Below are positions 22,660-60,929 of a DNA stretch of 64,000 bases, one piece after another. This DNA comes from Hyphomicrobiaceae bacterium (lineage in GTDB: Bacteria; Pseudomonadota; Alphaproteobacteria; Rhizobiales; Hyphomicrobiaceae): assembly GCA_008933705.1 (NCBI GenBank), contig WBUN01000013.1, positions 25,793-89,792 on the forward strand, in the 5' to 3' direction. The translations under genes and the position numbers were made by a program. Each line of letters opens with the position of its first letter. Within the stretch, counting starts at the first letter, position 1. Under the pieces are notes generated by a model. That model did not search any database. It saw nothing but the letters and a program-made list of their open reading frames with translations, and was not told the origin of the DNA.

Positions 22660-22961
22660 TGTCGCCCCGAGCCCCCTTTGCTACCAACTCGGCGGCATGA
22701 TCCTCTCTGGCGAGCCTTTCTGCAAGCAGGCGCACGAAAGTAACCAGTTGAGGATCTGGGGCTCGGTCGCCACGCGGTGTGGTGGCCCGGCTCATGGGGC
22801 GTCCGGTCGCCTCGGGGTTGGCAGGTTGTGCAGCCGCTCACGAGCTTCTGTGCGCAGCACTGGATGCACTCCAGGCTTTTGATCGAACACCCACCGATCG
22901 GATTCCAGTGGCATTCGTCCACTCGATTGGACTTGGCCCGCTCACGGCAGCGGCTCTGCAC
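22656..22961 (-). pseudogene. DUF5131 (Gp37/Gp68) N-terminal remnant with unrelated tail
   Basis: Residues 11-41 (SNRVDECHWNPIGGCSIKSLECIQCCAQKLV) mirror the Cys-rich N-terminus of the intact copy at 25676. After that the sequence is low-quality. Its stop overlaps the recombinase ATG. Confidence 0.35.
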
Positions 22962-23289
22962 CGTGCGCGGCCAGCGCCTCGCGAAGGCGGTTCAGATGGA
23001 CCACCGAGCCCTGGATGTTGCATGCCAGAGTCGCGTTGTGCGGGTCGCTGATCGCCCGGCGCCAAGCCTTCTCCGCTTCGCGCAGGACCCCAACCAGAGC
23101 GCCGTGGCCGATAGCCTTCAGGGCGGCATCGGCAATGGCGTACGACGATCCGTTGGCGTGCGCGTAGCGCTGGCACGCAGCCTGGAAGGCGGCGTCGGCC
23201 GCCACGGTCTCATACGGCTCGGGCGTGACTTGACCAGCCGCGGCCGGCCGGCCAAGAGCGCGCTCGCTATGCGTCGATATGTTGATCAT
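22942..23289 (-). CDS. hypothetical phage protein (115 aa)
   Basis: ORF with good GC3 in the leftward operon. Confidence 0.55.
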   Translation of the reverse strand: MINISTHSERALGRPAAAGQVTPEPYETVAADAAFQAACQRYAHANGSSYAIADAALKAIGHGALVGVLREAEKAWRRAISDPHNATLACNIQGSVVHLNRLREALAAHGAEPLP

Positions 23290-23304
23290 GCGATGTCCCT
23301 TCGT

Positions 23305-23862
23305 TCAGGCGGCAATCGCCGCCGTTTCTGCACGCCAGTGACTGCACAGCGCCGCCCACGGGCCATGCCAGAAGGCTCGCGCCTGGGGGCTGTCGCGCAT
23401 CTCGATGGGTGGGTAGGTGTCGTAAAGCTTGGAAAACCAGTCGTGCGTCATCAGGCGCTCGGCGAACATGTGCTCTGACCCGGTGTCGGCGCACAGGTCC
23501 AATTCGTCCCGCCATTCGTGCGCGATCTCGCGATCGATCCGGCCATCGCGGACCAACTGGAAGATGTCGGCCTTGATCGTGCGGATGGTCTTCTCTTCGT
23601 CGAATTCCCGGTAGCCGGGGAACGCCTTGTTCATGAAGTAGTCGAAGTTGAGCCCGCACAGGAACTCGCGCAGCGTTCGGTCGCCGATTGCGGTCCAGGC
23701 GTAGGCGTAGTTGCCAAAGTCGCTCTGCACGTCGATCTGGCCGCCGCGCGGCCATTCGCGGATCGTCGCGATTGCCCAGCCCCATCCATGCCGGGGCACG
23801 CGGGCGCGAACCTTGTAGACGCTGGCGATATCGAGCGAGATGGCGTAGCGCGGCTTCAGCAT
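23305..23862 (-). CDS. hypothetical phage protein (185 aa)
   Basis: Start at MLKPRY, 6 nt after the upstream stop. Normal composition. Confidence 0.6.
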   Translation of the reverse strand: MLKPRYAISLDIASVYKVRARVPRHGWGWAIATIREWPRGGQIDVQSDFGNYAYAWTAIGDRTLREFLCGLNFDYFMNKAFPGYREFDEEKTIRTIKADIFQLVRDGRIDREIAHEWRDELDLCADTGSEHMFAERLMTHDWFSKLYDTYPPIEMRDSPQARAFWHGPWAALCSHWRAETAAIAA

Positions 23863-23867
23863 GGCAC

Positions 23868-24530
23868 TCACCACCCAGAATACAAGGCGATCAGCTGCGC
23901 CCAATCGCGCAGCGCGTCGTTGTGCTTGAGGGTGTTGACGGCGTCGGCCGCGTGCCAGCCGCAAGGCAGCCGATGCAGCCAGAACTTCTTGATCAGTTTC
24001 TCGTCGCTGTTGTAGAGCCAGAGGATGGTGGCGATCAGCATCTGCCGCACCGGCGGCTCATCCTTGTAGGCCTTGCGCCAGGCCGCCATGGCTGGCGGGT
24101 CGGTTTGGTCGGTGTGGTAGTCAATGCCGCCCGGGCGCACGTCGATGCCATGGCACGCTGGGCGCCCCGGCATGAAGAACTTCCCGAGGCCGTAGTGATC
24201 GATGATGTGACGCAGCTGAGCAGTGAACCGCGTCGCGTCGATCGCCCCAAGGTTGTCGACGCCGACCACGGCCGCTAGCGCGAGCTTCTCCATGGCGTCC
24301 ATGCTCGGCGCCTTCGCGATGAGATCGACCAGGCGCGTCTTGGGAAATCGCCCCTTCGCGAACGCCGGCGACACGATGGCGAACGCAGTCAGCGCGACCG
24401 GAATGCGCGAGTGATAGATGTAGGCGTGCTCTGCCTTGTCCATGTCGCTCAGAACGACGAGACCGCCGGGGCCCATCTCGACGCCGAATTCGTTCAAGAG
24501 CGATTCCGGCTTCTGCACGGTGGCTAGCAT
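23868..24530 (-). CDS. hypothetical phage protein (220 aa)
   Basis: ORF with good GC3. No motif recognised. Confidence 0.6.
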   Translation of the reverse strand: MLATVQKPESLLNEFGVEMGPGGLVVLSDMDKAEHAYIYHSRIPVALTAFAIVSPAFAKGRFPKTRLVDLIAKAPSMDAMEKLALAAVVGVDNLGAIDATRFTAQLRHIIDHYGLGKFFMPGRPACHGIDVRPGGIDYHTDQTDPPAMAAWRKAYKDEPPVRQMLIATILWLYNSDEKLIKKFWLHRLPCGWHAADAVNTLKHNDALRDWAQLIALYSGW

Positions 24531-24584
24531 GTGGCGTCTCCAATGGTTTCGTCTCGGAGATATGACCGGGGAAGAGGAAGCCGG

Positions 24585-25676
24585 TCATGCGACAGGCTCC
24601 GTCACGCGCTGGGTGGCGACATGGGCAGTCCGTGGGGGCCGGCCCCGTTCTCCTGGCAGATCGTTGTGCTCGCGGCCGTCGAGCAGCCGGCCGGCGGTCT
24701 CCTTGCCGACGCGACGCATCGTGACAGAGCGTTCGTAACCATCCGCCAGATCGCCCCCCATGCGGGCGTTGTGGAAGCCCTGCCACGTCATCGCTGAGCC
24801 CCAGGGCGTGATGACCGTGGTGCTCTCGTCGGACCACTCCAGTCGCCAGCCGAGGCCATCGCATGCGGGAGCCCAGGCGCCCCACTGCTTGAAGAAGTAG
24901 GCGCTGCCGACGGTGTGGCAGAACTCGCGCGTGGCCCGATGCCAGGCGGGGTGGCTCGGCCGGGCCCGTGCGCCGGATTCGCCGCCGGAAATGACCTGGT
25001 CGACGAACTCCCAGCCCTTCCAGTCCACCGGCCCGAGCGCGGGCTCATAGGACACGAAGGTGGTGAAGCCCATCTCCGACAGCGCGCGCAGATCCTCGCG
25101 GCGCCGATCGGCCTCGGCCTGTCGCTCGACGGACGTGCCAAGCCACAGGCGGCTCACAATCGCGTCGAATGTGGCGACCATCGGGTCGAAATTGGATCTG
25201 CCGAAGATCGGGTGCGGCCACATCAGCCAGCGCGCCGAACGCCGGAGCTCCTCGAAGTAGGCGCGCATCACAGCGGGGCGCTTGGTGAGCAGCTGGCCGA
25301 TGTGGTGCGAGTAGACGATGGAGGCGAGGACGCGGTCGATCGCCTCGGCGGGGCGATCGGGGTGGAAGAGGTCGGCCATGTCGGCGACGAAGATCAGCGA
25401 CGGCTGCCCGGGTCCGAGCAGCGGCTCCTTGAGACCGCGCCAGCGGACCGGCCAGCTCCAGGTCGGGTGCTCGGGTGCGGCAACAGTCATTGTGCCGTTG
25501 AAGACCGGACGCCCCTTCCCATCGTCGGTCGTGCCGGCGTACAGCGGATGCTTGCGCAGCCGCGTGCCGGCCAGCTGCTGCGCATAGCAATGGATGCAGC
25601 CGGGGCTCTCGATCGAGCAGCCGCCGACCGTGCTCCACGTCGCGTCGCACCATTCGATGGGAGTATTGGCGCCCAT
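24585..25676 (-). CDS. phage Gp37/Gp68 family protein (DUF5131)
   Basis: N-terminus MGANTPIEWCDATWSTVGGCSIESPGCIHCYAQ is the hallmark of DUF5131. At 363 aa it is longer than usual at the C-terminus. Confidence 0.85.
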   Translation of the reverse strand: MGANTPIEWCDATWSTVGGCSIESPGCIHCYAQQLAGTRLRKHPLYAGTTDDGKGRPVFNGTMTVAAPEHPTWSWPVRWRGLKEPLLGPGQPSLIFVADMADLFHPDRPAEAIDRVLASIVYSHHIGQLLTKRPAVMRAYFEELRRSARWLMWPHPIFGRSNFDPMVATFDAIVSRLWLGTSVERQAEADRRREDLRALSEMGFTTFVSYEPALGPVDWKGWEFVDQVISGGESGARARPSHPAWHRATREFCHTVGSAYFFKQWGAWAPACDGLGWRLEWSDESTTVITPWGSAMTWQGFHNARMGGDLADGYERSVTMRRVGKETAGRLLDGREHNDLPGERGRPPRTAHVATQRVTEPVA

Positions 25677-25678
25677 GG
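25568..25678. repeat. DUF5131 5'-end segment, copy 1 (within intact gene)
   Basis: Two blocks, cggccagctgctgcgcAtagca (25568-25589) and ttcgatgggagtattggcgcccatgg (25653-25678), recur at 26047-26172. Confidence 0.85.
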
Positions 25679-25684
25679 CTCGGC

Positions 25685-26170
25685 CTATCCCGCGGTATCG
25701 CGTTGCTCGCGCCTGGTCTCGAGGCGCAACTGTGCGACGCCCGGGACGCGATTGCGCAACAGCCGCTCAACGCGCTCGGCTGCCTCCAGCGCGATGCGCA
25801 GGACCTCGCCACCTTGCTCCGTCACCTCGATCTCGTAGGCGCGCGCGTCCTGCTTTTTGCGCCTGCGCTTCAGCCATCCTTTGCGCGCCAGGCGGCGGCA
25901 GATGTCGGCGACGGTGGAGCGGTCGATTTCTATCATGTCGATGGTCGCCGCCTGTGAAAGGCCTGGATGCTCGGCGACCGCGGCGAGCACCGCCGTCTGG
26001 GGCAGCGTGATGTCGAGATCGCCGACGAAGGTCGCGAAGCTCGCGTCGGCCAGCTGCTGCGCGTAGCATAGAGTTTTGAGCAGTCGCATCGGCGCTCTCC
26101 TGGAAGGGGATTTCGTCATCGAGGGCTTTGCTCCAGGCGGAGTTGATTCGATGGGAGTATTGGCGCCCAT
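25685..26170 (-). CDS. MarR-family winged-helix regulator (possible chimeric N-terminus)
   Basis: The wHTH (LSQAATIDMIEIDRSTVADICRRLARKGWLKR) is MarR-like. The first 41 codons reuse MGANTPIE and CYAQQLA of DUF5131. An alternative start is ATG 26089. Confidence 0.8.
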   Translation of the reverse strand: MGANTPIESTPPGAKPSMTKSPSRRAPMRLLKTLCYAQQLADASFATFVGDLDITLPQTAVLAAVAEHPGLSQAATIDMIEIDRSTVADICRRLARKGWLKRRRKKQDARAYEIEVTEQGGEVLRIALEAAERVERLLRNRVPGVAQLRLETRREQRDTAG

Positions 26171-26172
26171 GG
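26047..26172. repeat. DUF5131 5'-end segment, copy 2 (forms N-terminus of MarR ORF)
   Basis: Block 1 matches 21/22 at 26047-26068. Block 2 matches 26/26 at 26147-26172. The middle part is unrelated. Confidence 0.85.
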
Positions 26173-26409
26173 AGGCTCAGTCCTGTGGTCGGTTGACATG
26201 GGGAGGTGGACGCGCGGCTCTGTCGGCATCCGATGGTCGGCCGCAACAGAGAGGCGGTGGCCATTGTCGGTGTAAACGAAGGCCGCGGGCGCCTTCACGT
26301 CTTCAGCGGTGGCCCCCTCCGACAGGTGGATGGTGGCGGTCCCCGCGCGGATCTCGGGCGAAACATCGCGCCGAGTCGCATCTTCGGCATGAGCCATGGT
26401 CTGCGTCAT
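26116..26409 (-). CDS. hypothetical phage protein (97 aa)
   Basis: The ORF start overlaps the upstream stop. The 3' end runs into the duplicated DUF5131 segment, so the C-terminus is uncertain. Confidence 0.45.
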   Translation of the reverse strand: MTQTMAHAEDATRRDVSPEIRAGTATIHLSEGATAEDVKAPAAFVYTDNGHRLSVAADHRMPTEPRVHLPMSTDHRTEPPWAPILPSNQLRLEQSPR

Positions 26410-26951
26410 GTTCCGCCCCGATTGCGCGCGTCCTTGTCGGTGCCGGATTGCCGTTGCAGCTCGCGCAGGACCTCATGCCGATCGGGCAGAGGCATCCAGA
26501 ACACCGGCACGAAATCGTCCTGATCGTCGATGGTCAGCCAGCGCGCGGCGTCCGACAGCGGCTCGACGAACTGGATGGCGCGGATGCGGCCTGCGGCATC
26601 CATGCCGACGATCTCGGTTTGCACCTCGGGCCGCAATTCCATGAGCTGCCATCCGGCGGCGGCGCCGGCGTTCGGCACCCACGTGTCGTGCTTCGGCCCC
26701 GGCCACGAGCCGTGATCGGTGAGGATCTTGTGGTAGTGGTGCGTGCTGCAATGGTGCCAGAGGTCGATCGGCGCGTCCTTCAGCCAGCGGCGGACGATCT
26801 CCATGCTGACATCCATCACGAGGCATCCGGCCTCGGCATCGGCATGCGGCGCCGGGTTGGCCTGGGCGATGTGCCAGAGCGCGGCCAGGGACCGATCGCC
26901 GATCGTCTCCAGGCCGCTGGTGTCGATCTCGAACGTGATCGTCGTCTTCAT
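26406..26951 (-). CDS. hypothetical phage protein (181 aa)
   Basis: Start MKTTITFEID; its ATG overlaps the upstream TGA (ATGA). The C-terminus has an FWMPLP motif. Confidence 0.6.
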   Translation of the reverse strand: MKTTITFEIDTSGLETIGDRSLAALWHIAQANPAPHADAEAGCLVMDVSMEIVRRWLKDAPIDLWHHCSTHHYHKILTDHGSWPGPKHDTWVPNAGAAAGWQLMELRPEVQTEIVGMDAAGRIRAIQFVEPLSDAARWLTIDDQDDFVPVFWMPLPDRHEVLRELQRQSGTDKDARNRGGT

Positions 26952-27461: not shown

Positions 27462-27698
27462 ATGGCCGACGAAGCCGACAACCTGGTGCTGCACTATCTG
27501 CCCCGCCTCGACGAGAAGGTCGATCAGCTGCACGAGGACATGCGCGAGGTGAAGGCGCGCCTGGGCCGGCTGGAGACCGGGCAGGCTGATCTGCAGGTGC
27601 AGCTGGCCGAGCATTCCGTGCGCTTTGACCGCCTCAACGCCCGTCTCGACCGCATCGAGCGCCGGCTGGAGCTGGCCGACCCGGCCACTCCGGGCTAG
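27462..27698 (+). CDS. small coiled-coil protein, paralogue 1 (78 aa)
   Basis: MADEADNLVLHYLPRLDEKVD...RLDRIERRLELADPATPG. TGACGA-N17-TACGAT ends 6 nt before the ATG. No SD sequence. Confidence 0.65.
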   Translation: MADEADNLVLHYLPRLDEKVDQLHEDMREVKARLGRLETGQADLQVQLAEHSVRFDRLNARLDRIERRLELADPATPG

Positions 27699-27707
27699 GA
27701 TGCCGCC

Positions 27708-27923
27708 ATGGCCGATGACCTCAAGGAGTTCGTGCACGAGCGCTTCCGTCGCACCGACGAGAAGCTCGACCGGGTGATCGAGCTTCTCGGGGACCTGCGC
27801 ATGCGGATCGGTATCCTCGAGCAACAGGGTGCTTCTCTCTCCAACCGCATTGACCGCATGGAGAGCCGCCTGGAGCGCATCGAGCGACGGCTCGATCTGA
27901 GCGACCCCGTCGTTTCCGGCTGA
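27708..27923 (+). CDS. small coiled-coil protein, paralogue 2 (71 aa)
   Basis: MADDLKEF...RLERIERRLDLSDPVVSG. It is preceded by TAGGATGCCGCC, whose TAG is the stop of paralogue 1. Confidence 0.65.
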   Translation: MADDLKEFVHERFRRTDEKLDRVIELLGDLRMRIGILEQQGASLSNRIDRMESRLERIERRLDLSDPVVSG

Positions 27924-28055
27924 ACCGACGATACGCCCGGGGCGGATTCCCGCCGCCGCCACCCTCAGATCGCTGCTGGCATACGCGAGCATGGGCGAGA
28001 GGCCGCCGCGACGCGCCCCATGACGAGCCATGCGCCGGCGTGCTAGGATGCCGCC

Positions 28056-28271
28056 ATGGCCGACACGCCCGATAACCTGATGCTGCATTATCTGCGCCGC
28101 CTCGACGAGAAGGTCGATCGGCTCGCCGAGGACGTGCGCGAGATCAGGACAACGCAGGCGGCCATGCTGCAGCTGCTCGCCAGCCACGACACCCATATGC
28201 CGCGCATTGAAATGCGGCTGGGCCGGCTGGAAGCCCGCCTCGGGTTGGCCGACCCGGCCATTCCGGGCTGA
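28056..28271 (+). CDS. small coiled-coil protein, paralogue 3 (71 aa)
   Basis: MADTPDNLMLHYLRRLDEKVDRL...RLEARLGLADPAIPG. TGACGA(28021)-N17-TAGGAT(28044), then 6 nt to the ATG. Confidence 0.65.
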   Translation: MADTPDNLMLHYLRRLDEKVDRLAEDVREIRTTQAAMLQLLASHDTHMPRIEMRLGRLEARLGLADPAIPG

Positions 28272-28388
28272 GCCCGCGCCGGCCGCACGGACAGAATGCC
28301 ACGGAATAGGCCCGGGGCGGGTTCCAGCCGCCGCCGGGCGTCTGCGCAGGCACTTGCGCAGGCCATCTGGATGCCCCACAATTAACAA

Positions 28389-28652
28389 ATGGCAGAAGTT
28401 CCCGACAACGCCTTGCTGCTCGCGGTCCTGCAGGAAATCAGGCAGGAGCAGAATAAGCAGCGCGCGCTGTTGCTGCAGACGGTCGATTATCTGCGCAAGA
28501 TGGAGCAGCGTCTCGATGCCCGGATCGTGGCGGCGCGCGATGATCTCGAGTTGATGCTGAAAAGCGAGCTGATGGGCAGTCTGACGCATTTTGAGACCAA
28601 GATTGAGGGCCTGTTGGCCCGGCATCTGGGCGCTGTTGAGAAGACGAATTAG
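28389..28652 (+). CDS. small coiled-coil protein, divergent paralogue 4 (87 aa)
   Basis: The MAEVPDNALLL start resembles the family. Heptad-rich. Confidence 0.55.
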   Translation: MAEVPDNALLLAVLQEIRQEQNKQRALLLQTVDYLRKMEQRLDARIVAARDDLELMLKSELMGSLTHFETKIEGLLARHLGAVEKTN

Positions 28653-28789
28653 AGAGAACCCCCTGTCGCGCCCCTCGCATGGCCCGGTAACGGCTGGAAC
28701 CGCTGCCGAGCCTTGGTGGGACAGGCTATGAATGTGCATATGCACGTTCATGCGAGGCCCCCTTGACGCCTGATGATGGCGCGCGACGC

Positions 28790-29005
28790 TCACGCGACGT
28801 TCTCCGTGCGGATGAGCCGCAGGCCGCCCTTGGTGGCCGCCAGCGTCTCCAGCTTGATCTCGTCGATCTCGCCGGCCAGGAGCTTCTTCAGCTCCGCCAG
28901 GGCCTCCGGACGCCGCTTCGCCTCGCCGATGTCGTCGCGGATGCGGGTGAGCAGGCGGTCGGTCGTGAGCGCCTTGGCGGACGGGATGGAAACGCGGATG
29001 GTCAT
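28790..29005 (-). CDS. hypothetical protein (71 aa)
   Basis: ATG 29005 is preceded by GAGGAC. Sequence MTIRVSIPSAKAL...; convergent with paralogue 4. Confidence 0.55.
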   Translation of the reverse strand: MTIRVSIPSAKALTTDRLLTRIRDDIGEAKRRPEALAELKKLLAGEIDEIKLETLAATKGGLRLIRTENVA

Positions 29006-29070
29006 TGTCGTCAGGTCCTCATTTGAGTTGCAGAGGACGCCCCCTGTGGCGCGACGCATGAACAGGGCAA

Positions 29071-29089
29071 TGTTGCAGAAAATGCAACA
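29071..29089. promoter_or_regulatory. candidate operator, perfect palindrome TGTTGCA-N5-TGCAACA
   Basis: GTTGC-N7-GCAAC core. The same half-sites and spacing occur at 30818-30834 in the CI/Cro intergenic region. Confidence 0.5.
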
Positions 29090-29224
29090 ATAGGTCAAGC
29101 GCAGAATTGCGCATTGTACAACTCAAGCGGTGGCAATTGCCGCTGTCGGCGCTACGCGCAGCTCCTCTAGGTAGGCGAGCGCGGGAATGGAATGCAGCGT
29201 TGACGTGCTGTGCTAAAGTGGGCC

Positions 29225-29491
29225 GTGGCTGACACGATCGAAAAGCGCGTTGCCGATCTGGAGCAGATCCTGGCGCACCTTCCGCAGGACCTGGACGCGC
29301 GCTTTGCGGGCGCCGATGCCCGCGCGGGCGCACGCTTCGATCGGCTGAACGTTCAGCTGCAGGCGCTCAAGGCGGAAGTGCAGCAGGGTCAAGTCGCCAC
29401 CGCCGGGCAGATTGCGGCCCTCGACCGCCGCATCGAAGGCATCGAGAGCAAGATCGATGAGCTGCTCGCGCGCTTGGGTCCGAAGCCCTAG
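29225..29491 (+). CDS. small coiled-coil protein, paralogue 5 (GTG start)
   Basis: The upstream GTGCTAAAGTGGGCC-GTGGCTGAC parallels GTGCTAGGATGCCGCC-ATGGCCGAC of the other copies. C-terminus RRIEGIESKIDELLARLG. Confidence 0.6.
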   Translation: MADTIEKRVADLEQILAHLPQDLDARFAGADARAGARFDRLNVQLQALKAEVQQGQVATAGQIAALDRRIEGIESKIDELLARLGPKP

Positions 29492-29494
29492 CCG
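29424..29494. repeat. 71-nt direct repeat, copy 1 (3' end of coiled-coil paralogue 5)
   Basis: accgccgcatcgaaggcatcgagagcaagatcgatgagctgctcgcgcgcttgggtccgaagccctagccg. Confidence 0.9.
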
Positions 29495-30087
29495 TGAAGA
29501 GCGCGGTGGGAGGAGACAATCACCCCCACGATCTGCGCATCGTCCGTTTCCATGTCAATCGAAGATGCGTTGCGCCCGGCGCTGTTCGTGATCAGCAGCG
29601 ATGGCGGAACAAATTGGCGCATCAGTGTGACAGCCTTGCCCGGCCTCTTGGAGTCATAATGATACTGAACACGGACCGCTGACAGGGCTGGGGGATTGGA
29701 GCAGATTTCGGCAGAACCATCTACAACCACGACATCTCCGTTTCTGATGCCCATCCGCGCAAGCGCGTCTGTGTGCACAGTCATCAGATAGCGGTTGCGC
29801 GTCTTGAGGCCTGCAAATGGATCGCTGGGGCCGAGCTCATAGGGCGTCAGCTCCTCGCGAAAACCTTTGAAATCCGCGGCAGAACTCTTGCCGTCATCCA
29901 GCCCAAGAACTTCAGCGGCGCGCCGCTCCAAGGCGGCGGCAATCTTCCGTGCATTCTCGCGTGACACGCCCCTCTTGCCATTCTCCATGCGCGAAATGTG
30001 TGCCACTGAAATGCCGGTCCTCTCCGCAAGTTCCTCTTGAGTAAGGCCCTTTGCCTCCCGCAGCTCGCGAATCCGGTTGTCTGTCAT
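29488..30087 (-). CDS. XRE-HTH / S24(LexA-CI)-fold repressor-like protein 1
   Basis: N-terminal HTH (LTQEELAERTGISVAHISRMENGKR). C-terminal beta-domain with GIRNGDVVVVD. Shares TLMRQFVPPSLLITNS and VGVIVSSH with the next gene. Confidence 0.8.
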   Translation of the reverse strand: MTDNRIRELREAKGLTQEELAERTGISVAHISRMENGKRGVSRENARKIAAALERRAAEVLGLDDGKSSAADFKGFREELTPYELGPSDPFAGLKTRNRYLMTVHTDALARMGIRNGDVVVVDGSAEICSNPPALSAVRVQYHYDSKRPGKAVTLMRQFVPPSLLITNSAGRNASSIDMETDDAQIVGVIVSSHRALHG

Positions 30088-30157
30088 ACCGCCATATCGA
30101 AGGCATCGAGAGTAAGCTCGATGAGCTGCTCGCGCGCTTGGGCCGAAGCCCTAGCCG
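30088..30157. repeat. 70-nt direct repeat, copy 2 (orphan 3' fragment)
   Basis: Four substitutions and a 1-nt deletion versus 29424-29494. Starts 1 nt after the ATG of repressor-like gene 1. Confidence 0.9.
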
Positions 30158-30179
30158 CCGAATCAAACAGGTCCAATGC

Positions 30180-53352: not shown

Positions 53353-53583
53353 TTGGTCGACATGCCCAAGGGACCAAGAGGCGAGAAACGACCGGCCGAC
53401 GTGATTGGCGCAGCGATCAAGGTCGCGCGGATCGCGACCGGTGAGATTGAGGATGAGCGCGTGGGCGCTCGATCCAAGGGGGGAAAGAGAGGCGGCAAGG
53501 CACGATCTGCCTCCCTCACACCAGAGCAACGCTCCGACATCGCGAGAACTGCCGCCTCCGCACGATGGAAGAAGAAGGGCTAG
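53353..53583 (+). CDS. small basic protein (76 aa)
   Basis: PKGPRGEKRPADVIGAAIKVARIATGEIED...RSDIARTAASARWKKKG is a widespread small basic family in Rhizobiales. Function unknown to me. Confidence 0.55.
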   Translation: MVDMPKGPRGEKRPADVIGAAIKVARIATGEIEDERVGARSKGGKRGGKARSASLTPEQRSDIARTAASARWKKKG

Positions 53584-54059: not shown

Positions 54060-54069
54060 GATTCACCTC

Positions 54070-55212
54070 TCACAGTGACACGGGTGCCACCTGCCCCCAA
54101 CCATCGACCATTGCTCCGGGCAGTACGTATTGCCTGATCTTCACCAAGTGCTTCCGCAGCAAATCCCAGCGGCCAGTCCGATGTTGAATCTGGCCTACGA
54201 TGATCCCGGGGTGCACTTGAACACGCTTAGCAAAACCTAGAATGTCCCTCTCCGCGAAGAAGGGAGTTTTGCGGGCTATGAAAGATGTCATGTCCTTCTG
54301 TGGCACACAAAATTCCGCAGCCGCAGCGTTCGCCAGCCCCTCCTCGTCGCTTTCGACAGGAGGAGTGTTGTGGCCCATCATCGACTTCCCTAAGTCGATG
54401 TCTATCACCTCCACTTCCATGCCATGTCGCCGCAGCACATGCTCAATCTCGTGCCTCAGCACGAACCAGAAATTGTCGATCCGGTCGTGAAGCAACGTGA
54501 TACCGATGACGGGTGATTGCGCGTCCAGCCAAAAGCACACTCCGTCGATTTTTCCGCCACTCAGCCCCTCAACGATGACGAGCCTGACGCCCGCTTCCAT
54601 TAGGAGACGAGGAACATGGCGTGCCTCCTCGGGATCAATAAGGAACGCCTTCAGACGCAGAAGTGCTTCGCGCAGCTTCTTCTCAGAATATGGAACGGAC
54701 GGCATTGCCTCTGCGATCTGCCTGACGCGGAACAGCCACGCCAACTGAGAAGGGGGGACGTCATCGTAGTGCGTCTTCTTCGCTGCATGAGCCATGCGGA
54801 CGTGCGGAAGATCGTTCGTGTTCGCGACCTTGAAGAAGCGAGACATCTGTACTTCGAGCATGTCCGCGTCTGTGTCCGTGAACCAGCAACGCTTGATCAT
54901 CTCACGCACTGGATACACGCTCTGCAGGCGTGCTCGTTTCCCAACGCCCGGATCAGGATCGCGGGCGCGCGCCATGTCGTAGGCCTTCTGCAGATTGGCA
55001 AAGAAATCCGGGTGCACCTCGAACGCTTCACCGAGCGCCTTCGCCATCTCTGGGCTAATGCCACGCTTGCCAGCAATGATCAGGTTCACGGCCTGCTCTG
55101 GCGTACCCAAGATGTACGCTAGGTCGCGCTGGTTCCACTCGCGGGCCTCCAACTCCTCGCGGATGAAGAAGCCCGGATGGGGCACGTCGATATGTTCGAT
55201 GGTGTCAGACAT
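54070..55212 (-). CDS. HigA-type XRE HTH fused to ImmA/IrrE (COG2856) zinc peptidase
   Basis: N-terminus HPGFFIREELEAREWNQRDLAYILG (HigA-like). HEIEHV zinc motif in the C-terminal domain. Confidence 0.85.
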   Translation of the reverse strand: MSDTIEHIDVPHPGFFIREELEAREWNQRDLAYILGTPEQAVNLIIAGKRGISPEMAKALGEAFEVHPDFFANLQKAYDMARARDPDPGVGKRARLQSVYPVREMIKRCWFTDTDADMLEVQMSRFFKVANTNDLPHVRMAHAAKKTHYDDVPPSQLAWLFRVRQIAEAMPSVPYSEKKLREALLRLKAFLIDPEEARHVPRLLMEAGVRLVIVEGLSGGKIDGVCFWLDAQSPVIGITLLHDRIDNFWFVLRHEIEHVLRRHGMEVEVIDIDLGKSMMGHNTPPVESDEEGLANAAAAEFCVPQKDMTSFIARKTPFFAERDILGFAKRVQVHPGIIVGQIQHRTGRWDLLRKHLVKIRQYVLPGAMVDGWGQVAPVSL

Positions 55213-55224
55213 GGTTTGTCTCGT

Positions 55225-55521
55225 TCAGTGTGGATCGCCGATATCAACGATTGTGGCAGTGGGTGGATCGGTACTCAGGTCCAACTCGAAGCGAATCCTG
55301 TACTGATCGTTGACGCGAATTTGTCGGAGTCCTTTCAGTTTGCCGCCTAGCGCCTTGTATTCGAGGCTTTTCCAGTTCCGCAGCGTCCGTTCGTCCGGAG
55401 CCGCCGCCATCAAGATGATCTTGTTCCTCGCAGACTTCACGACGCCAATCGGGAGCCCAAGTTCATGAGCCCTGTTGGTGCGTATGAGCGCGAGTCGAGC
55501 TGGTCGGAACGCGATCTTCAT
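55225..55521 (-). CDS. HigB-like (RelE/ParE superfamily) toxin
   Basis: LKGLRQIRVNDQYRIRFEL...IVDIGDPH parallels HigB at 57971 (HSIRINDQWRLCF...ITDYH). Confidence 0.75.
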   Translation of the reverse strand: MKIAFRPARLALIRTNRAHELGLPIGVVKSARNKIILMAAAPDERTLRNWKSLEYKALGGKLKGLRQIRVNDQYRIRFELDLSTDPPTATIVDIGDPH

Positions 55522-55625
55522 ACGCCCGACATATGCGCCCGCCCGCAGCAATTGTCAACATCGACTGGCGTTCATGCGTTAATCTGAGCGGATTGCTTGG
55601 CAACAGCGGGCACAACATCTAAGTT

Positions 55626-56486
55626 GTGGGCATGAACAAGCTCCCGACCCATAGACGTGTGCAAATCCTCAAGATGCTGGTGGAGGGCTCCAGCATGCGG
55701 TCCGTCGCACGCGTGGCGGACGTGAGCATCAACACGGTGGTCAAGCTGCTCATCGACGCCGGCAATGCTTGCACGACCTTCCACAGCGAATGCGTGCGTG
55801 GCCTCACCTGCCGGCGCATTCAATGCGACGAGATTTGGAGCTTCTGCTACAGCAAGGCCAAGAACGTGCCGACCGCGAAGGCAGCACCGGAAGGCGCCGG
55901 CGATGTGTGGACCTGGTCCAGCATTTGCGCCGACAGCAAGTTGATCTGCAATTGGATGGTTGGCGGCCGTGACGCCTACGTCGCGATGTTGCTGATGGAC
56001 GATCTGAAGACGCGACTTACCCACCGCGTCCAGCTCACTACGGACGGGCATCGCGCCTACCTCGAAGCCGTCGAAGGCGCTTTTGGCGACGATGTCGACT
56101 ACGCCATGCTCGTGAAGCTCTATGGCGCCGCGCCCAAGGGGCCGCAGGTGCGCTACTCGCCAGCGGAGTGCATCGGCATCCGCAAAACCCGGATCACGGA
56201 CAATCCCGATCCCGCGCACGTCTCAACCAGCTACAGTGAGGCGATGCACCGGCAGCTGCGAATGAGCATGAAGCGATTTGCGAGGCTGACCAATGCGCAC
56301 TCCAAGAAACTAGCCAACCATTGCCACGCGCTGGCGCTTTACTTCGTCGCCTACAACTGGATCAAAATCCACACCACGCTACGGGTGACACCAGCCATGG
56401 CCGCTGGCTTGACTGACAAGCTGATGGAGTGGGAAGGCCTCGTGGCCATCATCGACCAGTTGGAGGCGCGTCAGAAGTCAAACTGA
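55626..56486 (+). CDS. IS1-family-like DDE transposase
   Basis: N-terminal HTH (ILKMLVEGSSMRSVARVADVSINTV), CDEIWSF, TTDGHRAY and FARLTNAHSKK motifs as in IS1-type transposases. Terminal inverted repeats were not found by eye. Confidence 0.7.
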   Translation: MGMNKLPTHRRVQILKMLVEGSSMRSVARVADVSINTVVKLLIDAGNACTTFHSECVRGLTCRRIQCDEIWSFCYSKAKNVPTAKAAPEGAGDVWTWSSICADSKLICNWMVGGRDAYVAMLLMDDLKTRLTHRVQLTTDGHRAYLEAVEGAFGDDVDYAMLVKLYGAAPKGPQVRYSPAECIGIRKTRITDNPDPAHVSTSYSEAMHRQLRMSMKRFARLTNAHSKKLANHCHALALYFVAYNWIKIHTTLRVTPAMAAGLTDKLMEWEGLVAIIDQLEARQKSN

Positions 56487-56570
56487 TACAGTGCCAAGCC
56501 ATCCGATGACTTGGCGCCGGGCACATTGAATAGCATATTGAAGCAAGCTGGCCTGAAGGGGAGCGCGTGA
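56487..56570 (+). pseudogene. hicA 3' remnant (27 codons)
   Basis: YSAKPSDDLAPGTLNSILKQAGLKGSA is a HicA C-terminus. It begins immediately after the transposase stop, and its TGA overlaps the hicB ATG (TGATG). Confidence 0.5.
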
Positions 56571-56782
56571 TGCGTTACGCTGTCGTGATCGAGAAGGCAG
56601 ACGGGAACTATTCGGCCTACGTGCCCGACCTTCCGGGCTGCGTAGCGACCGGTAGGACGACGGCAGAAGCCGAAACCGAGATCCGCGCGGCCATTAGGTT
56701 CCACATCGATGGTCTGAAGGAGGATGGGCTGCCGTTGCCCGAGCCCCAAGCCACGCTCACCTATGTTGATGCCGAAGCATAG
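56570..56782 (+). CDS. hicB: HicB antitoxin (orphaned)
   Basis: MRYAVVIEKADGNYSAYVPDLPGCVATGRTTAEAETEIRAAI. Confidence 0.8.
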   Translation: MRYAVVIEKADGNYSAYVPDLPGCVATGRTTAEAETEIRAAIRFHIDGLKEDGLPLPEPQATLTYVDAEA

Positions 56783-56866
56783 CCTGGGCGACTTTGCTCA
56801 AGACGAGGCCCGGGGCGTTACCGAAACGTGGGGCAGACGCGCCCCATGTTTCCTAGTTGCACGGCA

Positions 56867-57337
56867 TCAGGCCGGCACAAGATTGCCACGCACTCTTCGC
56901 TTAGACTTCGTGATCGCACGCACGACCCGCATGCTTTCCTTGATCTTGGCGAATGCGACTTCTGCGAGGAATGCCGACCTTGTCGTGCCAGCCTCCTTCA
57001 CGAACGCATCGATGACTTCAAGTATGCCAGCATCCAACGACACGTTGATGCGCTTGGACGTCCCGCCAAACACCAACGGGACCTCGATGATGAAGGCAGC
57101 CTTCGCCATTTCGATCTTCTCGGTAGCATTTGCAGCCAAGTCGCCATGCGTCCGGGGAGCCGGCATATCCTTGCCGTCATCGTCCATGGCCTCAGCGTAC
57201 TCGCGAAGAGAGACCTTGGCATTCGCTATAGCCTCATCATAGGTGTCACCCGCGCCGTAGCATCCTGGAAGGTCCGGAAACGATACGCCGAATGCGCTAT
57301 CGGGGTCCTTGTAGACATAAGCCAGATAGGTCTTCAT
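56867..57337 (-). CDS. hicB: HicB antitoxin with C-terminal RHH domain
   Basis: YKDPDSAFGVSFPDLPGCYGAGDTYDEAIANA, plus a C-terminal KRINVSLDAGILEVIDAFVKEAGTTRSAFL (CopG-like). Confidence 0.8.
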   Translation of the reverse strand: MKTYLAYVYKDPDSAFGVSFPDLPGCYGAGDTYDEAIANAKVSLREYAEAMDDDGKDMPAPRTHGDLAANATEKIEMAKAAFIIEVPLVFGGTSKRINVSLDAGILEVIDAFVKEAGTTRSAFLAEVAFAKIKESMRVVRAITKSKRRVRGNLVPA

Positions 57338-57352
57338 CTCTCTCTCCAGCCC

Positions 57353-57568
57353 TTAACTCCACCAGCCAGCGTCTTTGTAGATCTGCCGCACAAGGCCAAT
57401 CGGAAGGTCTTTTTTCGGATGGGTGAGCACGATAGGATGCGTCGCGCCGGGCTTCTTCAAGGTATGATGACTGCCCTTGATCCGGACAACAGCCCAACCA
57501 TCTTTTTCCAGTAAGCGCATCAGCTTGCGGCTATTGCGCTCCATCTGTTCTTCAGGGTTCTTGGCCAT
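57353..57568 (-). CDS. hicA: HicA toxin
   Basis: SRKLMRLLEKDGWAVVRIKGSHHTLKKPG. Start uncertain (57544-57583). Confidence 0.8.
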   Translation of the reverse strand: MAKNPEEQMERNSRKLMRLLEKDGWAVVRIKGSHHTLKKPGATHPIVLTHPKKDLPIGLVRQIYKDAGWWS

Positions 57569-57657
57569 ATATATACACATCAATAGCGGCGAATCAAGAT
57601 ATCACGATACATCAAATGATACACACGGGCAGCATGGTGAACGAAACGTAACATCAC

Positions 57658-57957
57658 TCACGCGGTCTTGCGCGGTTTGATTGCGGAGATCTCCCCTTGA
57701 AGGCTCTTGCGCACCACCTCGACATCGTGGCGGGCCTGAATGCCGAGCCAGAAGTCCGGCGTGGTACCGAAATAGCGAGCGAGCCTCAGAGCCGTGTCCG
57801 GTGTAACTGCTGTCTCCTCCCGCACCAGGCGCTCTACGCGCGTGCGGGGCACACGCAGAGCCGCCGCGAGCGCATAGGGGCTCATGTGGAGCGGTGCAAG
57901 GAACTCCTCCCGCAAGATTTCACCTGGGTGGACAGGGGCCAACGGATTGCTGCTCAT
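57658..57957 (-). CDS. higA: HigA antitoxin (XRE HTH)
   Basis: VHPGEILREEFLAPLHMSPYALAAALRVPRTRVERLVRE...PDFWLGIQ is the canonical HigA/VapI pattern. Confidence 0.85.
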   Translation of the reverse strand: MSSNPLAPVHPGEILREEFLAPLHMSPYALAAALRVPRTRVERLVREETAVTPDTALRLARYFGTTPDFWLGIQARHDVEVVRKSLQGEISAIKPRKTA

Positions 57958-57970
57958 CGGTCGTATTCCT

Positions 57971-58255
57971 TCAGTGATAGTCGGTGATCTCGACATTCTC
58001 GGCATCACTTCCGCTCCAGATGAAGCAGAGCCGCCACTGATCATTGATCCTGATCGAATGTTGCCCAACTCGGTTACCCTTCAGCGCTTCCAAATGGTTA
58101 CCCGGAGGACTGCGCAAGTCTTTGAGCGCTCTCGCCTCGGCGAGCATGATCAGTTTGCGGCGGGCAAGTCGGATCAGATTGGCCGGAAAATTCTTGCCAG
58201 GATGGCGCCCTTCGAAAATCGCTTGGGCTTGCCGGTCCTTGAAGCTCTTGATCAT
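57971..58255 (-). CDS. higB: HigB toxin (plasmid maintenance killer family)
   Basis: MIKSFKDRQAQAIFEG...LEALKGNRVGQHSIRINDQWRLCFIW...ITDYH. Confidence 0.85.
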   Translation of the reverse strand: MIKSFKDRQAQAIFEGRHPGKNFPANLIRLARRKLIMLAEARALKDLRSPPGNHLEALKGNRVGQHSIRINDQWRLCFIWSGSDAENVEITDYH

Positions 58256-58397
58256 CGCCGCCTACGTATCACGACGTGATACGTGCGTCAAGACATGCCG
58301 AGCGTGGAGAGGTGGAAGCAGTGGCCGCGGCCGCGGCCTGATGCCAGCCCCCTCCCGGCGTAAGGCATTTACGTCGCATGCCTGCGACATACACTTT

Positions 58398-58940
58398 TCA
58401 GTGTGTTCTCCTGTCGCGCGAATTCAGCAGCGCCCGAAAGTCGAAGTCGTCGTACTTCAGCCGCGGCGCCTTCCGCCTGCCTTCACCCTCCTCGAACTCG
58501 ACAATCTCGAACTTCTCCAACATCACCAGAGAGCGCCGAACATCCGCCTTCGTGCGACCGACCGCGTTCGCGAGCTCGGTCACCGATCCAAGATCCTTCT
58601 GGCGCAGGGTCATGATGAGCATCATGTTTTGTCGCGAGAATACACGCGCGAGCGCCTCGAAGGATGTGAACCACACCCGGGGATCGGTCGGGAGCTGCTT
58701 CTTCTGGCTCTTCGCAATCGCCAGCATGCGGTTGTGGATGTACTCCCGGGACGCGATGCCGACGTGTAGGATGCGCTTGGTCAGAGCACGACCTCCTTCT
58801 TCGAAATCCTGTCTGAGCCGCTGCGCAACTTGCGAGTCGGGTCGGAAGAGCCTATCTGAGTCGCGTTCCCGCTCTGCTTCGGCATCGGGCTTAAGTCCCC
58901 GAGAGGGGCCTCTATGTGGCGGCGATAGCAAGCACTGCAT
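58398..58940 (-). CDS. wHTH transcriptional regulator-like protein
   Basis: ILHVGIASREYIHNRMLAIAKS...VWFTSFEALARVFS...LGSVTELANAVGRTKADVRRSLVMLEKFEIVE is a pattern seen in small MarR-like/antitoxin-like regulators. Start uncertain. Confidence 0.55.
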   Translation of the reverse strand: MQCLLSPPHRGPSRGLKPDAEAERERDSDRLFRPDSQVAQRLRQDFEEGGRALTKRILHVGIASREYIHNRMLAIAKSQKKQLPTDPRVWFTSFEALARVFSRQNMMLIMTLRQKDLGSVTELANAVGRTKADVRRSLVMLEKFEIVEFEEGEGRRKAPRLKYDDFDFRALLNSRDRRTH

Positions 58941-58991
58941 AGCGACTCGTTGGACCTCGACCTCCGAGGTCCCTGCTGGAGAATCGATGGT

Positions 58992-59028: not shown

Positions 59029-59114
59029 CCGAGCAGCGTGCTCACCCTCTGGAATTTTCTGCGGCCGCCCTTAACACTTAAGCCAGTTTCGTGTATACGA
59101 ATCACTAGACTTGC

Positions 59115-59224
59115 GCGCAGCGCACGCCCGGACGATCCCAGATCGCTCCGGGTTTTGTGTTTTCAGGGCTGGAAGCCCATGAACCTCGAGCAAATCGGCG
59201 GCTCCAATGTCGCGATCTACCTGG
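59115..59224. repeat. 110-bp direct repeat, copy 1
   Basis: gcgcagcgcacgcccggacgatcccagatcgctccgggttttgtgttttcagggctggaagcccATGaacctcgag...ctacctgg. 107/110 identical to 60820-60929. Confidence 0.9.
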
Positions 59225-59376
59225 TTGGCGCGGCTTGCGCCATTGCTGCGGCCGCGATCCAAGGTGGGTGGTTCGCGGCTCTGACCACGGCCAGCTCTCT
59301 GCTCATCGGTCTCTCGGGCGTTCGCGGTGCGGTCGCCGTCTATACGGGGTCGCAGACAACACCGCCAAGAGCATAG
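59179..59376 (+). CDS. small two-TM membrane protein (65 aa)
   Basis: MNLEQIGGSNVAIYLVGAACAIAAAAIQGGWFAALTTASSLLIGLSGV. Its first 46 nt lie in the 110-bp direct repeat. Confidence 0.5.
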   Translation: MNLEQIGGSNVAIYLVGAACAIAAAAIQGGWFAALTTASSLLIGLSGVRGAVAVYTGSQTTPPRA

Positions 59377-59405
59377 GGCCGCTGCCTTCTGTTCTCGCGC
59401 CGTGA

Positions 59406-59612
59406 GACCTGGAGGCCTTCGTCGCGGAGAGGGCCGCAGATCTGACGTTTAGCAAAACAGCGACGATGTTGCGGGTCAGCCCATCGACGCTGGAGCATCT
59501 CATCCGGAAAGATGCGGACTTTGCGGCACCGCACCTGCGGGAGCGCAGACGCTTCTTCGCGCGTGCTGCGCTCGCTGAGTATCTGGCGCACCCAACAAAG
59601 CACGCGCACTAA
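59406..59612 (+). CDS. excisionase/AlpA-like HTH ORF (no canonical start upstream of the HTH)
   Basis: DLTFSKTATMLRVSPSTLEHLIRKDADFAAP...RRFFARAALAEYL resembles Xis/AlpA. The frame is open from 59406. The only ATG (59466) falls inside the HTH. Confidence 0.45.
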   Translation, partial: DLEAFVAERAADLTFSKTATMLRVSPSTLEHLIRKDADFAAPHLRERRRFFARAALAEYLAHPTKHAH

Positions 59613-59652
59613 GTCCATTTCAGATCGGCCGGTAGGGCCCGGACAGGACGAC

Positions 59653-60687
59653 ATGCAACGCGAGTTCGAGACGAGCAAAAGGATCAGCCGCGACAGAGTC
59701 TTAGCGGCCTTCCGCTTCATCGCACCCGACGAGGATATCGACTTGGCCGAGGCCAAGGCGCCGAAGACCATTTTGCAGTACGCGAGCGTCTGGCGCTTGT
59801 ACACACAATGGTGTCAGGAGCGCGGCTTCTCCGCCGTGCCCGCGTCGCCGGCGCAGCTGCGGGAATACCTACGGCACCTGCAGGGCCTCGGCCACTCCCC
59901 CTCATCGTTGGATTCCTACCTGGCCGCCGTCGCCGCGGTTCACCGATATCGGGGATACCGGGTAGACCGCACGTTGCTGATCGAACCGCTGAAGGCCGCA
60001 CGCCGACGCGCGGGCCCGCCCCGACAGGCACGGGCGCTGATGGGAATGGAGCTCAAGAAGGTAGTGGGTGGGCTCAAGGCCGATCACCCGCGCGATGCCC
60101 GCGACGCCGTCATCCTGCTGTTGGGATTCGCCTGCGCGCTGCGCAGCGCGGAGATCGTGGGGCTCGACTGGCAGCGGCGCGGCAGCACCCTGGCCGGCGG
60201 CACGGGCACGCTCGGCTTCGAGCGCAGCGGCCTGCTCGTCGTGTTGGCGACCTCCAAGGCCTCGCAGGTGACTCCCGTGGAACTGCCCATCGCCGACAGG
60301 GAGATGCCATCGCTCACCGTTTGGGTGGAACGTTGGGTGGCTCTGGCACAGATCGGCGCCGGCGAGCCGATCTTCCGTCCCATTGACAACCGCGGGCGCA
60401 TTCTGGCCCGCCGGCTCGCGCCTCCAGCCATTGCCGAGATTGTCCGGGCCCGGATGCTTGCGCATGCCAAGGCCACCGGTATGCCCGAGACTGAGGCGAT
60501 CTTGCTCGCCAGGGCCTTCAGCGCGCACTCTCTAAGGCGCGGCTATTGCTCGACGGCGAGCGAGGCCAAGCTGCCGTTGGGCCAGATCCGGCGCCGTTCG
60601 CGCCACGGCTCCGACGAACTGCTGGCGCGCTACATCCGCACCGCCGAAGGCCGACGTCAGAGCGGCCTCGGCAAGATCGGGTTTTGA
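59653..60687 (+). CDS. tyrosine recombinase/integrase
   Basis: SAM-like N-domain (YASVWRLYTQWCQERG...YLRHLQ). Catalytic domain with ALRSAE (Arg), HSLRRG (H-x-x-R) and LLARYIR (Tyr). Confidence 0.85.
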   Translation: MQREFETSKRISRDRVLAAFRFIAPDEDIDLAEAKAPKTILQYASVWRLYTQWCQERGFSAVPASPAQLREYLRHLQGLGHSPSSLDSYLAAVAAVHRYRGYRVDRTLLIEPLKAARRRAGPPRQARALMGMELKKVVGGLKADHPRDARDAVILLLGFACALRSAEIVGLDWQRRGSTLAGGTGTLGFERSGLLVVLATSKASQVTPVELPIADREMPSLTVWVERWVALAQIGAGEPIFRPIDNRGRILARRLAPPAIAEIVRARMLAHAKATGMPETEAILLARAFSAHSLRRGYCSTASEAKLPLGQIRRRSRHGSDELLARYIRTAEGRRQSGLGKIGF

Positions 60688-60819
60688 GAGCGGAGATGCA
60701 ACACGAATCGGTCGCGCTCTTGTACCGTCACAGTCGCGCATGGTGCGCCCAGCGCCTCGGCAGCGCGCCACTCGTGCCCGCCGCCGTCGCCGAACGTGCC
60801 TCAACGCACGAGGTGATCA

Positions 60820-60929
60820 GCGCAGCGCGCGCCCGGACGATCCCAGATCGCTCCGGGTTTTGTGTTTTCAGGGCTGGAAGGCCATGAACCTCGAGCAAAT
60901 CGGCGGCTCCAATGTCGCGAACTACCTGG
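60820..60929. repeat. 110-bp direct repeat, copy 2
   Basis: Offset is exactly 1705 bp from copy 1. The pair brackets the xis-like ORF and the tyrosine integrase. Confidence 0.9.

Follow-up and report, generated by a model that had tools for sequence, protein, structure and literature searches.

The stretch of DNA analysed here (the window; 64,000 nucleotides (nt), ~65% G+C) is part of a Hyphomicrobiaceae chromosome recovered as a metagenome-assembled genome (genus-level bin AWTP1-13; ENA contig_369, 156,699 bp), and its 43-kb prophage part holds single genes bracketed by short direct repeats of neighbouring sequence. The left end of the prophage is formed by a tRNA-Thr gene (21002-21076, plus strand; ARAGORN, Rfam) and an overlapping large serine recombinase gene (21055-22659, minus strand; Pfam Resolvase/Recombinase/Zn_ribbon_recom), and the prophage extends beyond the right edge of the window. 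From the left follow a leftward early operon (DUF5131, MarR), tandem coiled-coil (CC) genes, two CI-like repressors with a cro-like gene, 3.7 kb of small open reading frames (ORFs), replication and methylase genes (34.8-45.5 kb), a lower-GC accessory region (45.5-59 kb) with many toxin-antitoxin pairs, a xis/tyrosine-integrase module, the small and large terminase genes and portal genes. The prophage has two integrases, the serine enzyme at the tRNA-Thr end and the internal tyrosine enzyme. Five bracketing repeats had been listed in an earlier note on this DNA and are numbered here along the prophage: around MarR (case 1), repressor 1 (case 2), a short stretch beside the cro-like gene (case 3), a sixth CC gene (case 4) and the xis/integrase module (case 5). 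Cases 2 to 5 agree with that list in position and identity, whereas case 1 had been overstated. In all, we find about eight bracketed units in this one prophage; their repeats measure 23-118 nt and are 77-100% identical. The repeats are probably scars of ordinary phage mosaic evolution, left where related phage sequences recombined at gene ends and in the regulatory spacers that they share.

The repeats were measured by local alignment and by self-BLAST of the window, in which the five cases reach E-values from 4e-6 (case 1) to 2e-48 (case 5). The prophage part yields 15 self-matches at E<1e-3, compared with 0-1 in each of 20 first-order Markov simulations of the same dinucleotide make-up, and the 21-kb host part holds low-identity self-matches only (five at <=77%; one of 40 nt at 87.5%, within an ORF). 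A chance origin of the repeats is excluded. The longest repeat of the host part consists of two paralogous genes (3050-3859 and 5422-6228), ~70% identical and 2.4 kb apart. As the source is a metagenome bin, and as contigs of the Logan assembly break at the case-5 repeat, the repeats might be suspected of being chance matches or mis-assemblies, a suspicion that we consider exceedingly improbable. Single contigs from several independent metagenome runs reach across both copies in cases 1-3 and show 0 differences (X1: 22963-26425 and 28724-31437; X3/X5: 30900-35100), the order of repressor 2, repressor 1 and the adjoining CC gene recurs on seven contigs, and the unique segment between the case-5 copies was assembled identically in eight runs. 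Since the arrangements are reproduced in independent metagenome assemblies, they are not assembly artefacts.

Gene ends as repeats and a second locus

In case 2 the repeated sequence is the 3' end of a CC gene. Five tandem small CC paralogues with N- and C-terminal motifs in common form an array at 27462-29491 on the plus strand (CC1 27462-27698, CC2 27708-27923, CC3 28056-28271, CC4 28389-28652, CC5 29210-29491; repeat families D1, D2, D9 and D10, protein alignment). The 3' end of CC5 (29424-29494, plus strand) overlaps the stop codon of the repressor gene rep1 (29488-30087, minus strand; 199 amino acids (aa), HTH_3 and a C-terminal domain by Pfam), and on the other side of rep1 it returns as an orphan fragment (30088-30157, plus strand). 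Beyond the orphan lie the second repressor gene, rep2 (30180-30776, minus strand; 198 aa), and, divergent from it, a cro-like HTH_3 gene (30862-31089, plus strand). The two copies match over 71 nt at 93% (66/71) with one indel (E 7e-22). The orphan starts 1 nt past the rep1 ATG, has no start codon, and is frameshifted by a 1-nt deletion that moves its stop. Both repressors are CI-like and share 43% protein identity, and the unit of a CC 3' end plus a repressor is thereby present twice. Because identity drops from 93% in the CC piece to 53% (297/565) in the adjoining repressor genes, case 2 has the appearance of a stack of two immunity alleles that had diverged and were joined by way of a conserved flank, the other joint being non-homologous. 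The sole relative of rep2 that was found is 52% identical and stands alone in its phage contig. Without an upstream region of its own, rep1 would be co-transcribed with rep2, and the tandem pair may confer double immunity.

Case 4 has the same layout with another gene end. An RHH-like gene (51570-51728, plus strand; a 51-aa gene call with its stop at 51725) includes copy 1 of the repeat (51621-51728). It is followed by CC6 (51768-52016, plus strand), which protein alignment places in the family of the CC array, and then by copy 2 (52015-52123, plus strand), an orphan RHH 3' fragment directly upstream of a YozE-like gene (52126-52401). Over 109 nt the copies are 77% identical (E 2e-15). Copy 2 starts on the CC6 stop codon and ends 3 nt before the YozE-like ATG; it carries a leucine-to-proline change, is in frame with no conserved sequence, and reads as a decaying remnant of the RHH gene.

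A search with the HVO_A0114-like protein adjoining case 5 brought up a second locus in the same metagenome-assembled genome, here called L167. It is a ~5-kb prophage remnant on contig_2200 (5897-11054), placed between host genes, and it is collinear with 50.1-59.5 kb of the window, but mosaic, with block identities from 56% to 97%. The points at which homology between the two loci begins or breaks off are gene ends: 50209 is a gene stop, 51701 lies in the last 25 nt of the RHH gene, and 59517 lies 3 nt past an ATG, where L167 diverges into unrelated small genes. The remnant has a CC gene, the same RHH orphan and the YozE-like gene, and its upstream RHH gene is a different allele that has only the last ~25 nt in common with that of the window. 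Its CC gene is a chimera of CC2 and CC6, with a CC2-like N-half (56% to CC6) and a CC6-like C-half (90%). The identities of the remaining blocks are 88% for the RHH end and spacer, 91.7% plus one indel for the orphan and 97.1% for the YozE-like gene; in counts, 9/109 positions of the orphan and 8/276 positions of the YozE-like gene differ. L167 is direct evidence of exchange at gene ends and between paralogues, and it illustrates recombination between related phages at gene ends, which the earlier note had named as one of two candidate routes and which we find the best reading. That L167 keeps both the orphan and the bracketed gene places the case-4 orphan before the split of the two loci. The earlier note had expected bracketed genes to be present in some relatives and missing from others, and had named shared fragments without such polymorphism as counter-evidence; for case 4 the latter is what L167 displays.

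Because the indel breaks the case-4 frame relative to L167, and because the case-2 fragment is frameshifted and has no start, both orphans look unconstrained. Each orphan was considered as a possible gene and set aside: ORF 51916-52107 of case 4 for its broken frame in L167, the case-2 fragment for its missing start codon, and the ORF in the case-5 orphan copy, which neither annotation calls. The claim that one copy always belongs to an intact gene and the other is an orphan accordingly holds for cases 2 and 4 and probably for case 5. It fails for case 1, whose orphan is fused in frame to MarR, and for case 3, whose copies are essentially intergenic.

Case 1 uses the 5' end of a gene. On the minus strand the order is a degraded DUF5131 start, MarR, 8 nt, and the intact DUF5131 gene (24585-25676; Pfam DUF5131, E 2e-61). 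The MarR gene (25685-26172, minus strand; Pfam MarR at residues 54-111) has the degraded DUF5131 5' fragment (26027-26172) in frame ahead of the domain, as seen in translations and a relaxed alignment. In place of the ~110 bp claimed earlier, the exact repeat covers 27 nt only (25652-25678, the first 27 nt of the DUF5131 gene, against 26146-26172, E 4e-6), accompanied by a 24-nt patch with one mismatch; a ~150-nt alignment reaches 65% identity with many gaps. The exact repeat begins 2 nt ahead of the DUF5131 ATG. The long MarR frame opens with MGANTPIE and includes CYAQQLA, and since both peptides are in frame and native to DUF5131, MarR sits within a duplicated DUF5131 5' end, from which its N-terminus derives and whose start it may use. 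Gene calls differ at this point, NCBI giving a 161-aa fusion and ENA a 134-aa form.

Repeat edges coincide with gene boundaries: copy 2 of case 2 with the rep1 ATG, copy 2 of case 4 with the CC6 stop and the YozE-like ATG, and case 1 with the DUF5131 ATG.

Cassettes around small genes and the integrase module

Case 3 is of another kind. Its core repeat (31145-31196 and 31908-31960; 53 nt, 94%, E 2e-15) can be extended to 31121-31196 and 31885-31960 at 82% identity. It had been taken for the 3'-end/terminator piece of a 48-aa micro-ORF; it is instead one of several repeated intergenic cassettes, and case 3 is a family of terminator and ribosome-binding-site cassettes between the cro-like gene and the replication genes, not a gene fragment. 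The first copy of this cassette, T1 (31121-31196), forms a GC-rich hairpin where the cro-like gene and the 48-aa ORF (31182-31328, minus strand) converge, and the second lies at 31885-31960. A second cassette, P, consists of a conserved leader, a GAGGGAG Shine-Dalgarno sequence and an ATG; nhmmer finds it in three copies at E ~1e-20 (31418-31473, plus strand; 32380-32433; 33340-33395), spaced 960 and 962 nt. This promoter-proximal triplet had escaped the earlier note, and the ORFs lying between the P cassettes are mutually unrelated. A third cassette, T2, is a double hairpin (32859-33000, plus strand; fold -56.7 kcal/mol, z -2.8) with a second full copy at 33810-33950 and partial copies of its second hairpin at 32217-32274 and 33293-33350, all located by nhmmer. 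The composite at 33293-33395 joins T2 to P, that is, a stem-loop to the Shine-Dalgarno sequence and start codon of the downstream gene. Profile searches count three copies of P, four of the T2 second hairpin, two of full T2, two of T1 and two of the case-5 cassette. All P, T1 and T2 copies fall within 3 kb (31.1-34 kb); outside this stretch, cassette-like repeats are limited to the case-5 pair around the integrase.

Two bracketed units in this cluster had been missed. The tRNA-Met gene (32295-32372) lies between imperfect repeats of the P cassette 5' half (32263-32285 and 32372-32397; 23-26 nt, 81% identity; whole unit 32263-32397, plus strand), and a 66-aa gene (33023-33223, minus strand) is bracketed by T2 second-hairpin copies (32948-32995 and 33300-33346, 84%). 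The tRNA-Met gene sits in a split copy of P, and at the DNA level it is matched most closely by tRNA-Met genes of Caulobacter phages. The segment 33850-34800, which separates the last T2 cassette from the replication genes, has ~70% G+C and no convincing coding frame; a 282-aa arginine-rich minus-strand ORF appears there in one annotation only.

Evenly spaced cassettes invite the thought that all of the repeats arose by tandem duplication (slippage, unequal sister crossing-over) within one genome, followed by divergence and partial deletion, with no foreign DNA involved. Besides the P spacing, the CC array at 27.4-29.5 kb consists clearly of tandem paralogues, and rep1 and rep2 are tandem paralogues as well. 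We nevertheless judge this account quite improbable, more so than any of the alternatives considered below. The 93% identity of a 71-nt flank beside 53% in the repressor genes is incompatible with a uniform clock, the ORFs between the P cassettes are unrelated, and L167 has another RHH allele upstream of the same orphan. Likewise, no MarR paralogue lies nearby, and 0/80 DUF5131 loci of other genomes have a MarR homologue within 10-kb flanks.

In case 5, copy 1 (59115-59232, plus strand) comprises a terminator-like hairpin with a T-run, an ATG at 59179 and, from there, the opening 18 codons of an intact two-helix membrane ORF of 65 aa (59179-59376). Copy 2 (60820-60937, plus strand) is an orphan of this cassette and gene start that leads into an uncalled, non-hydrophobic ORF. 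The copies are 96% identical over 118 nt (E 2e-48), and both follow the order hairpin with T-run, Shine-Dalgarno sequence, ATG. Between them lies the module (59406-60687, plus strand; Pfam) of an Xis-like HTH_17 frame (59406-59612), which has no canonical start before its first helix, and the tyrosine integrase (59653-60687); downstream are the small terminase (61108-61965) and the large, GpA-type terminase (61910-63880). Case 5 is best described as a terminator and gene-start cassette duplicated around the xis/tyrosine-integrase module.

An integrase between long direct repeats might also be a minimal integrative element, with xis and int inserted site-specifically into a terminator/gene start upstream of the terminases and the 118-bp repeats serving as attL and attR. 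The catalytic residues of the enzyme (R164, K202, H292, R295, H318, Y327) are invariant in an alignment with 9 relatives, the HTH_17 frame accompanies it within the bracketed 1.7 kb, and imperfect repeats of this length and identity, which include a gene end, resemble att duplications that regenerate one. No integrase occurs in L167, which has, at 97% identity, one case-5 unit together with the 65-aa gene and the front half of xis, as might a decayed copy. Other evidence makes such an element unlikely. The integrase family is rare (13 relatives, 47-59% identity, all metagenomic), and each relative with Pfam-called downstream genes sits directly upstream of a small terminase (Sf6_terminase, GP3_package or Terminase_4; three other families in the relatives, four with that of the window). 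No flanking repeats occur at the integrase relatives L161, L163, L164 and L165. Because the relatives adjoin small terminases too, and do so without flanking repeats, the position of the integrase was probably inherited with the packaging module. The element would consist of xis and int alone, without cargo, and its Xis frame would have no usable start before the first helix. Homology with L167 moreover reaches 47 nt to the left of the repeat, into the neighbouring gene, so copy 1 and the 65-aa gene look like resident sequence, and L167 is not an empty site, as its repeat has the 65-aa gene attached. Neither an excised form in runs of depth 7-29 nor an empty site was found.

One joint in run X8 (contig depth 3-6), which goes back by 1705, was considered as an excised 1705-bp circle and rejected, since there the left flank of copy 2 meets a right flank of L167 type, with 9 L167-specific differences and a continuation into L167. 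It is missing from four deeper runs, and it is a graph chimera or a recombinant with another locus. In runs X3-X5 unrelated sequence (CGCGTTCGCCGCGCACGTCGCGGCCTTCAC) precedes a contig match that runs from 60776 into repeat copy 2, a hint that the community contains a third locus with the same left flank as copy 2. A second tandem prophage starting at 59.1 kb was considered as well, given that the integrase relatives adjoin terminases (the contig ends at ~65.7 kb, in the portal gene); a single mosaic phage is simpler because in L167 the accessory region is still joined to the repeat block, in the same order.

The block shared with L167 at this end (59068-59517) is 97% identical between the loci in this assembly, with the neighbouring HVO_A0114 gene at only 88%. 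In some metagenomes (runs X1-X5) its depth is ~2x that of the adjoining prophage contigs and no contig carries a variant, whereas in others 8-9 differences separate the loci. The doubled depth suggests that both loci are identical in this block in those metagenomes, and if that reading is right, exchange between prophage and remnant may be continuing.

The cassettes recall the promoter-early stem-loops (PeSLs) of T4-type phages, in which a terminator stem-loop, a Shine-Dalgarno sequence and a start codon are repeated around small ORFans of a plastic region, and single genes would be gained or lost when the copies on either side recombine (Arbiol et al. 2010, PMC2839356; Comeau et al. 2014, PMC4122927). 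On this model the cassettes would be landing pads, and genes, the tRNA and the integrase module would move as mini-circles by single crossover. The region from the cro-like gene to the replication genes (31.1-34 kb) is indeed built of repeated cassettes flanking small ORFs, the 66-aa gene and tRNA-Met, and the T2-P, T1 and case-5 cassettes share the composite grammar of PeSLs, which are defined as stem-loop, promoter and Shine-Dalgarno/start and flank ORFans (PMC2839356). As an explanation of the repeats we hold it possible but rather doubtful. Here a temperate, high-GC alphaproteobacterial prophage carries about a dozen copies, all but the case-5 pair within 3 kb, whereas T4-type phages have ~50 copies across plastic regions, and cases 1, 2 and 4 use coding sequence, not cassettes. 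A consensus scan of 27-35 kb found no sigma-70-like promoter in the cassettes, with an E. coli consensus that may not fit this host. PeSL mini-circles and cassette-bounded indels between relatives have no shown counterpart here: the X8 joint, chimeric with L167, is not a circle junction, and contigs of ten runs hold no mini-circle or deletion joints between neighbouring cassettes, although contigs drop rare forms and low-frequency circles are possible.

Further observations concern the accessory region. Toxin-antitoxin-like pairs crowd 52400-58950 (HicA/HicB at 52442-52882 and ~56867-57580; HigB with an HTH gene at 57658-58255), and the HVO_A0114 gene of this cluster lacks in the window the TumE-like partner that is present in L167. 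A TadE/VWA-domain protein, pilus-assembly-like, is encoded at 47292-48581 on the minus strand. One contig of run X7 (depth 13) skips 1490 nt at 53469-54960 with a 26-nt filler, the shorter side being only 20 nt; the skip would delete part of 53580-54059 and part of the HTH/M78-peptidase gene at 54070-55212, and it may represent a presence/absence variant.

Probable mosaic recombination and known systems

The repeats, their placement where genes start and stop, the abrupt loss of identity at their edges, and a second locus with swapped alleles and a chimeric paralogue are observed, and we find them probably best explained as products of mosaic recombination. Segments would be exchanged, stacked or inserted among related phages, prophage remnants and paralogous genes of the same cell. 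One crossover, homologous or homeologous, would fall in a short shared stretch (a gene end or a terminator/ribosome-site spacer), while the other would often be non-homologous (illegitimate). Selection would retain only products joined at gene boundaries, and each event would leave a partial duplicate of the shared stretch beside the incoming gene. The donors, the order of events and the enzymes, host RecA or an unrecognised phage recombinase, are parts that we infer. Paralogue arrays and regulatory cassettes supply many short homologies in the same region.

Several results weigh against this explanation. In the collections searched we found no donor genome and no empty site for any case, L167 being the only related locus, and the comparison with relatives that the earlier note had proposed thus yielded no site lacking a bracketed gene. 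The 90%-identity clusters of window proteins that were looked up contain this genome only, and IMG/VR, GTDB genomes and JGI metagenomes hold no close relatives. Scans of IMG/VR with the integrase, TerL, rep1 and rep2 found only terminases shared, at <=68% identity; a GTDB genome scan with DUF5131 gave a best match of 43% and no synteny; and exact DNA pattern scans with the P cassette and the case-5 core found nothing in viral and JGI metagenome contigs. Cultured phages share only tRNA-Met and a distant TerL. Cases 1-3 are arranged identically in all metagenome assemblies, and the locus related to case 4 has the same insert with the same orphan, so this event is old, and it may have been either a gain or a swap of the upstream RHH allele. 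Pfam and PHROGs recognise no Rad52-like or other phage recombinase among 40 prophage proteins. For cases 1 and 5, duplication in situ followed by divergence is conceivable, and the explanation itself invokes a general process that is hard to falsify for each case.

The earlier note had gone further, proposing a single preferred route of gene gain. The results do not support such a route: the five cases differ in kind, and gene gain is not demonstrable for all of them, case 2 consisting of stacked repressor alleles and case 3 of repeated regulatory spacers. The cassette-like insertion mechanism that it offered as its other candidate is not demonstrated either: no empty site, donor, excised circle or dedicated enzyme was found. 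Its view that insertion sequences (IS) or transposons are not at work is borne out. The bracketed genes have no transposase domain, the repeats (23-118 nt) are of unequal length, and the window contains no inverted repeats of at least 40 nt and no terminal inverted repeats.

The closest precedent is gene 68 of mycobacteriophage Island3: a ~50-bp stretch from the 3' end of the preceding gene recurs at its flank, an arrangement attributed to homologous recombination at short boundary sequences, intra- or intermolecular (PMC3029335). A single small gene in a direct repeat with the upstream gene's 3' end is the exact layout of cases 2 and 4, and case 1 uses a 5' end. Island3 offers one example together with a close relative, Brujita, that lacks the gene; here no empty site is known, and there are about eight bracketed units. 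Mosaic breakpoints at gene ends, a hallmark of the Island3 type, are found between the window and L167 (50209, 51701, 59517), whereas L167, the only related locus, keeps the gene and the orphan where a relative without the gene and one repeat copy would be looked for.

Experiments with lambdoid phages and remnants in E. coli have shown recombination of temperate phages with defective prophages across diverged homology (De Paepe et al. 2014, PMC3945230). The L167 remnant, which shares 88-97% blocks with the prophage and has its breakpoints at gene ends, presents the same substrate and outcome as such relaxed recombination; unlike in that system, no Rad52-like recombinase was identified here.

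MarR, CC6 and the small ORFs between P and T cassettes are moron-like, being single accessory genes between otherwise adjacent genes. Morons, in the sense of Juhala et al. 2000, are reportedly single genes, each equipped with its own promoter and terminator, that have entered between genes of a phage. They are defined by their own transcription signals and a shift in composition, not by flanking partial duplications, and unlike them MarR and rep1 appear to have lost upstream signals of their own rather than to have brought them.

This prophage is an unusually dense and well-preserved set of recombination joints, with its bracketed units, stacked repressors, chimeric regulator and matching remnant. 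Such cases help to weigh short gene-end homology against random joining in phage mosaicism, and the stacked repressors and the internal integrase have possible consequences for immunity and prophage stability. It is an unlikely extension that this lineage of temperate Hyphomicrobiaceae phages uses its few conserved cassettes and gene-end homology boxes as genuine landing pads, at which single-gene circles, including the tRNA and the xis/integrase module, are inserted and excised at appreciable frequency; if true, PeSL-like shuffling would not be confined to the T4 superfamily, and its driver here might be the internal tyrosine integrase or a phage recombinase that escaped recognition. The findings leave current understanding unchanged and extend known mechanisms to an uncultured phage of an alphaproteobacterium.

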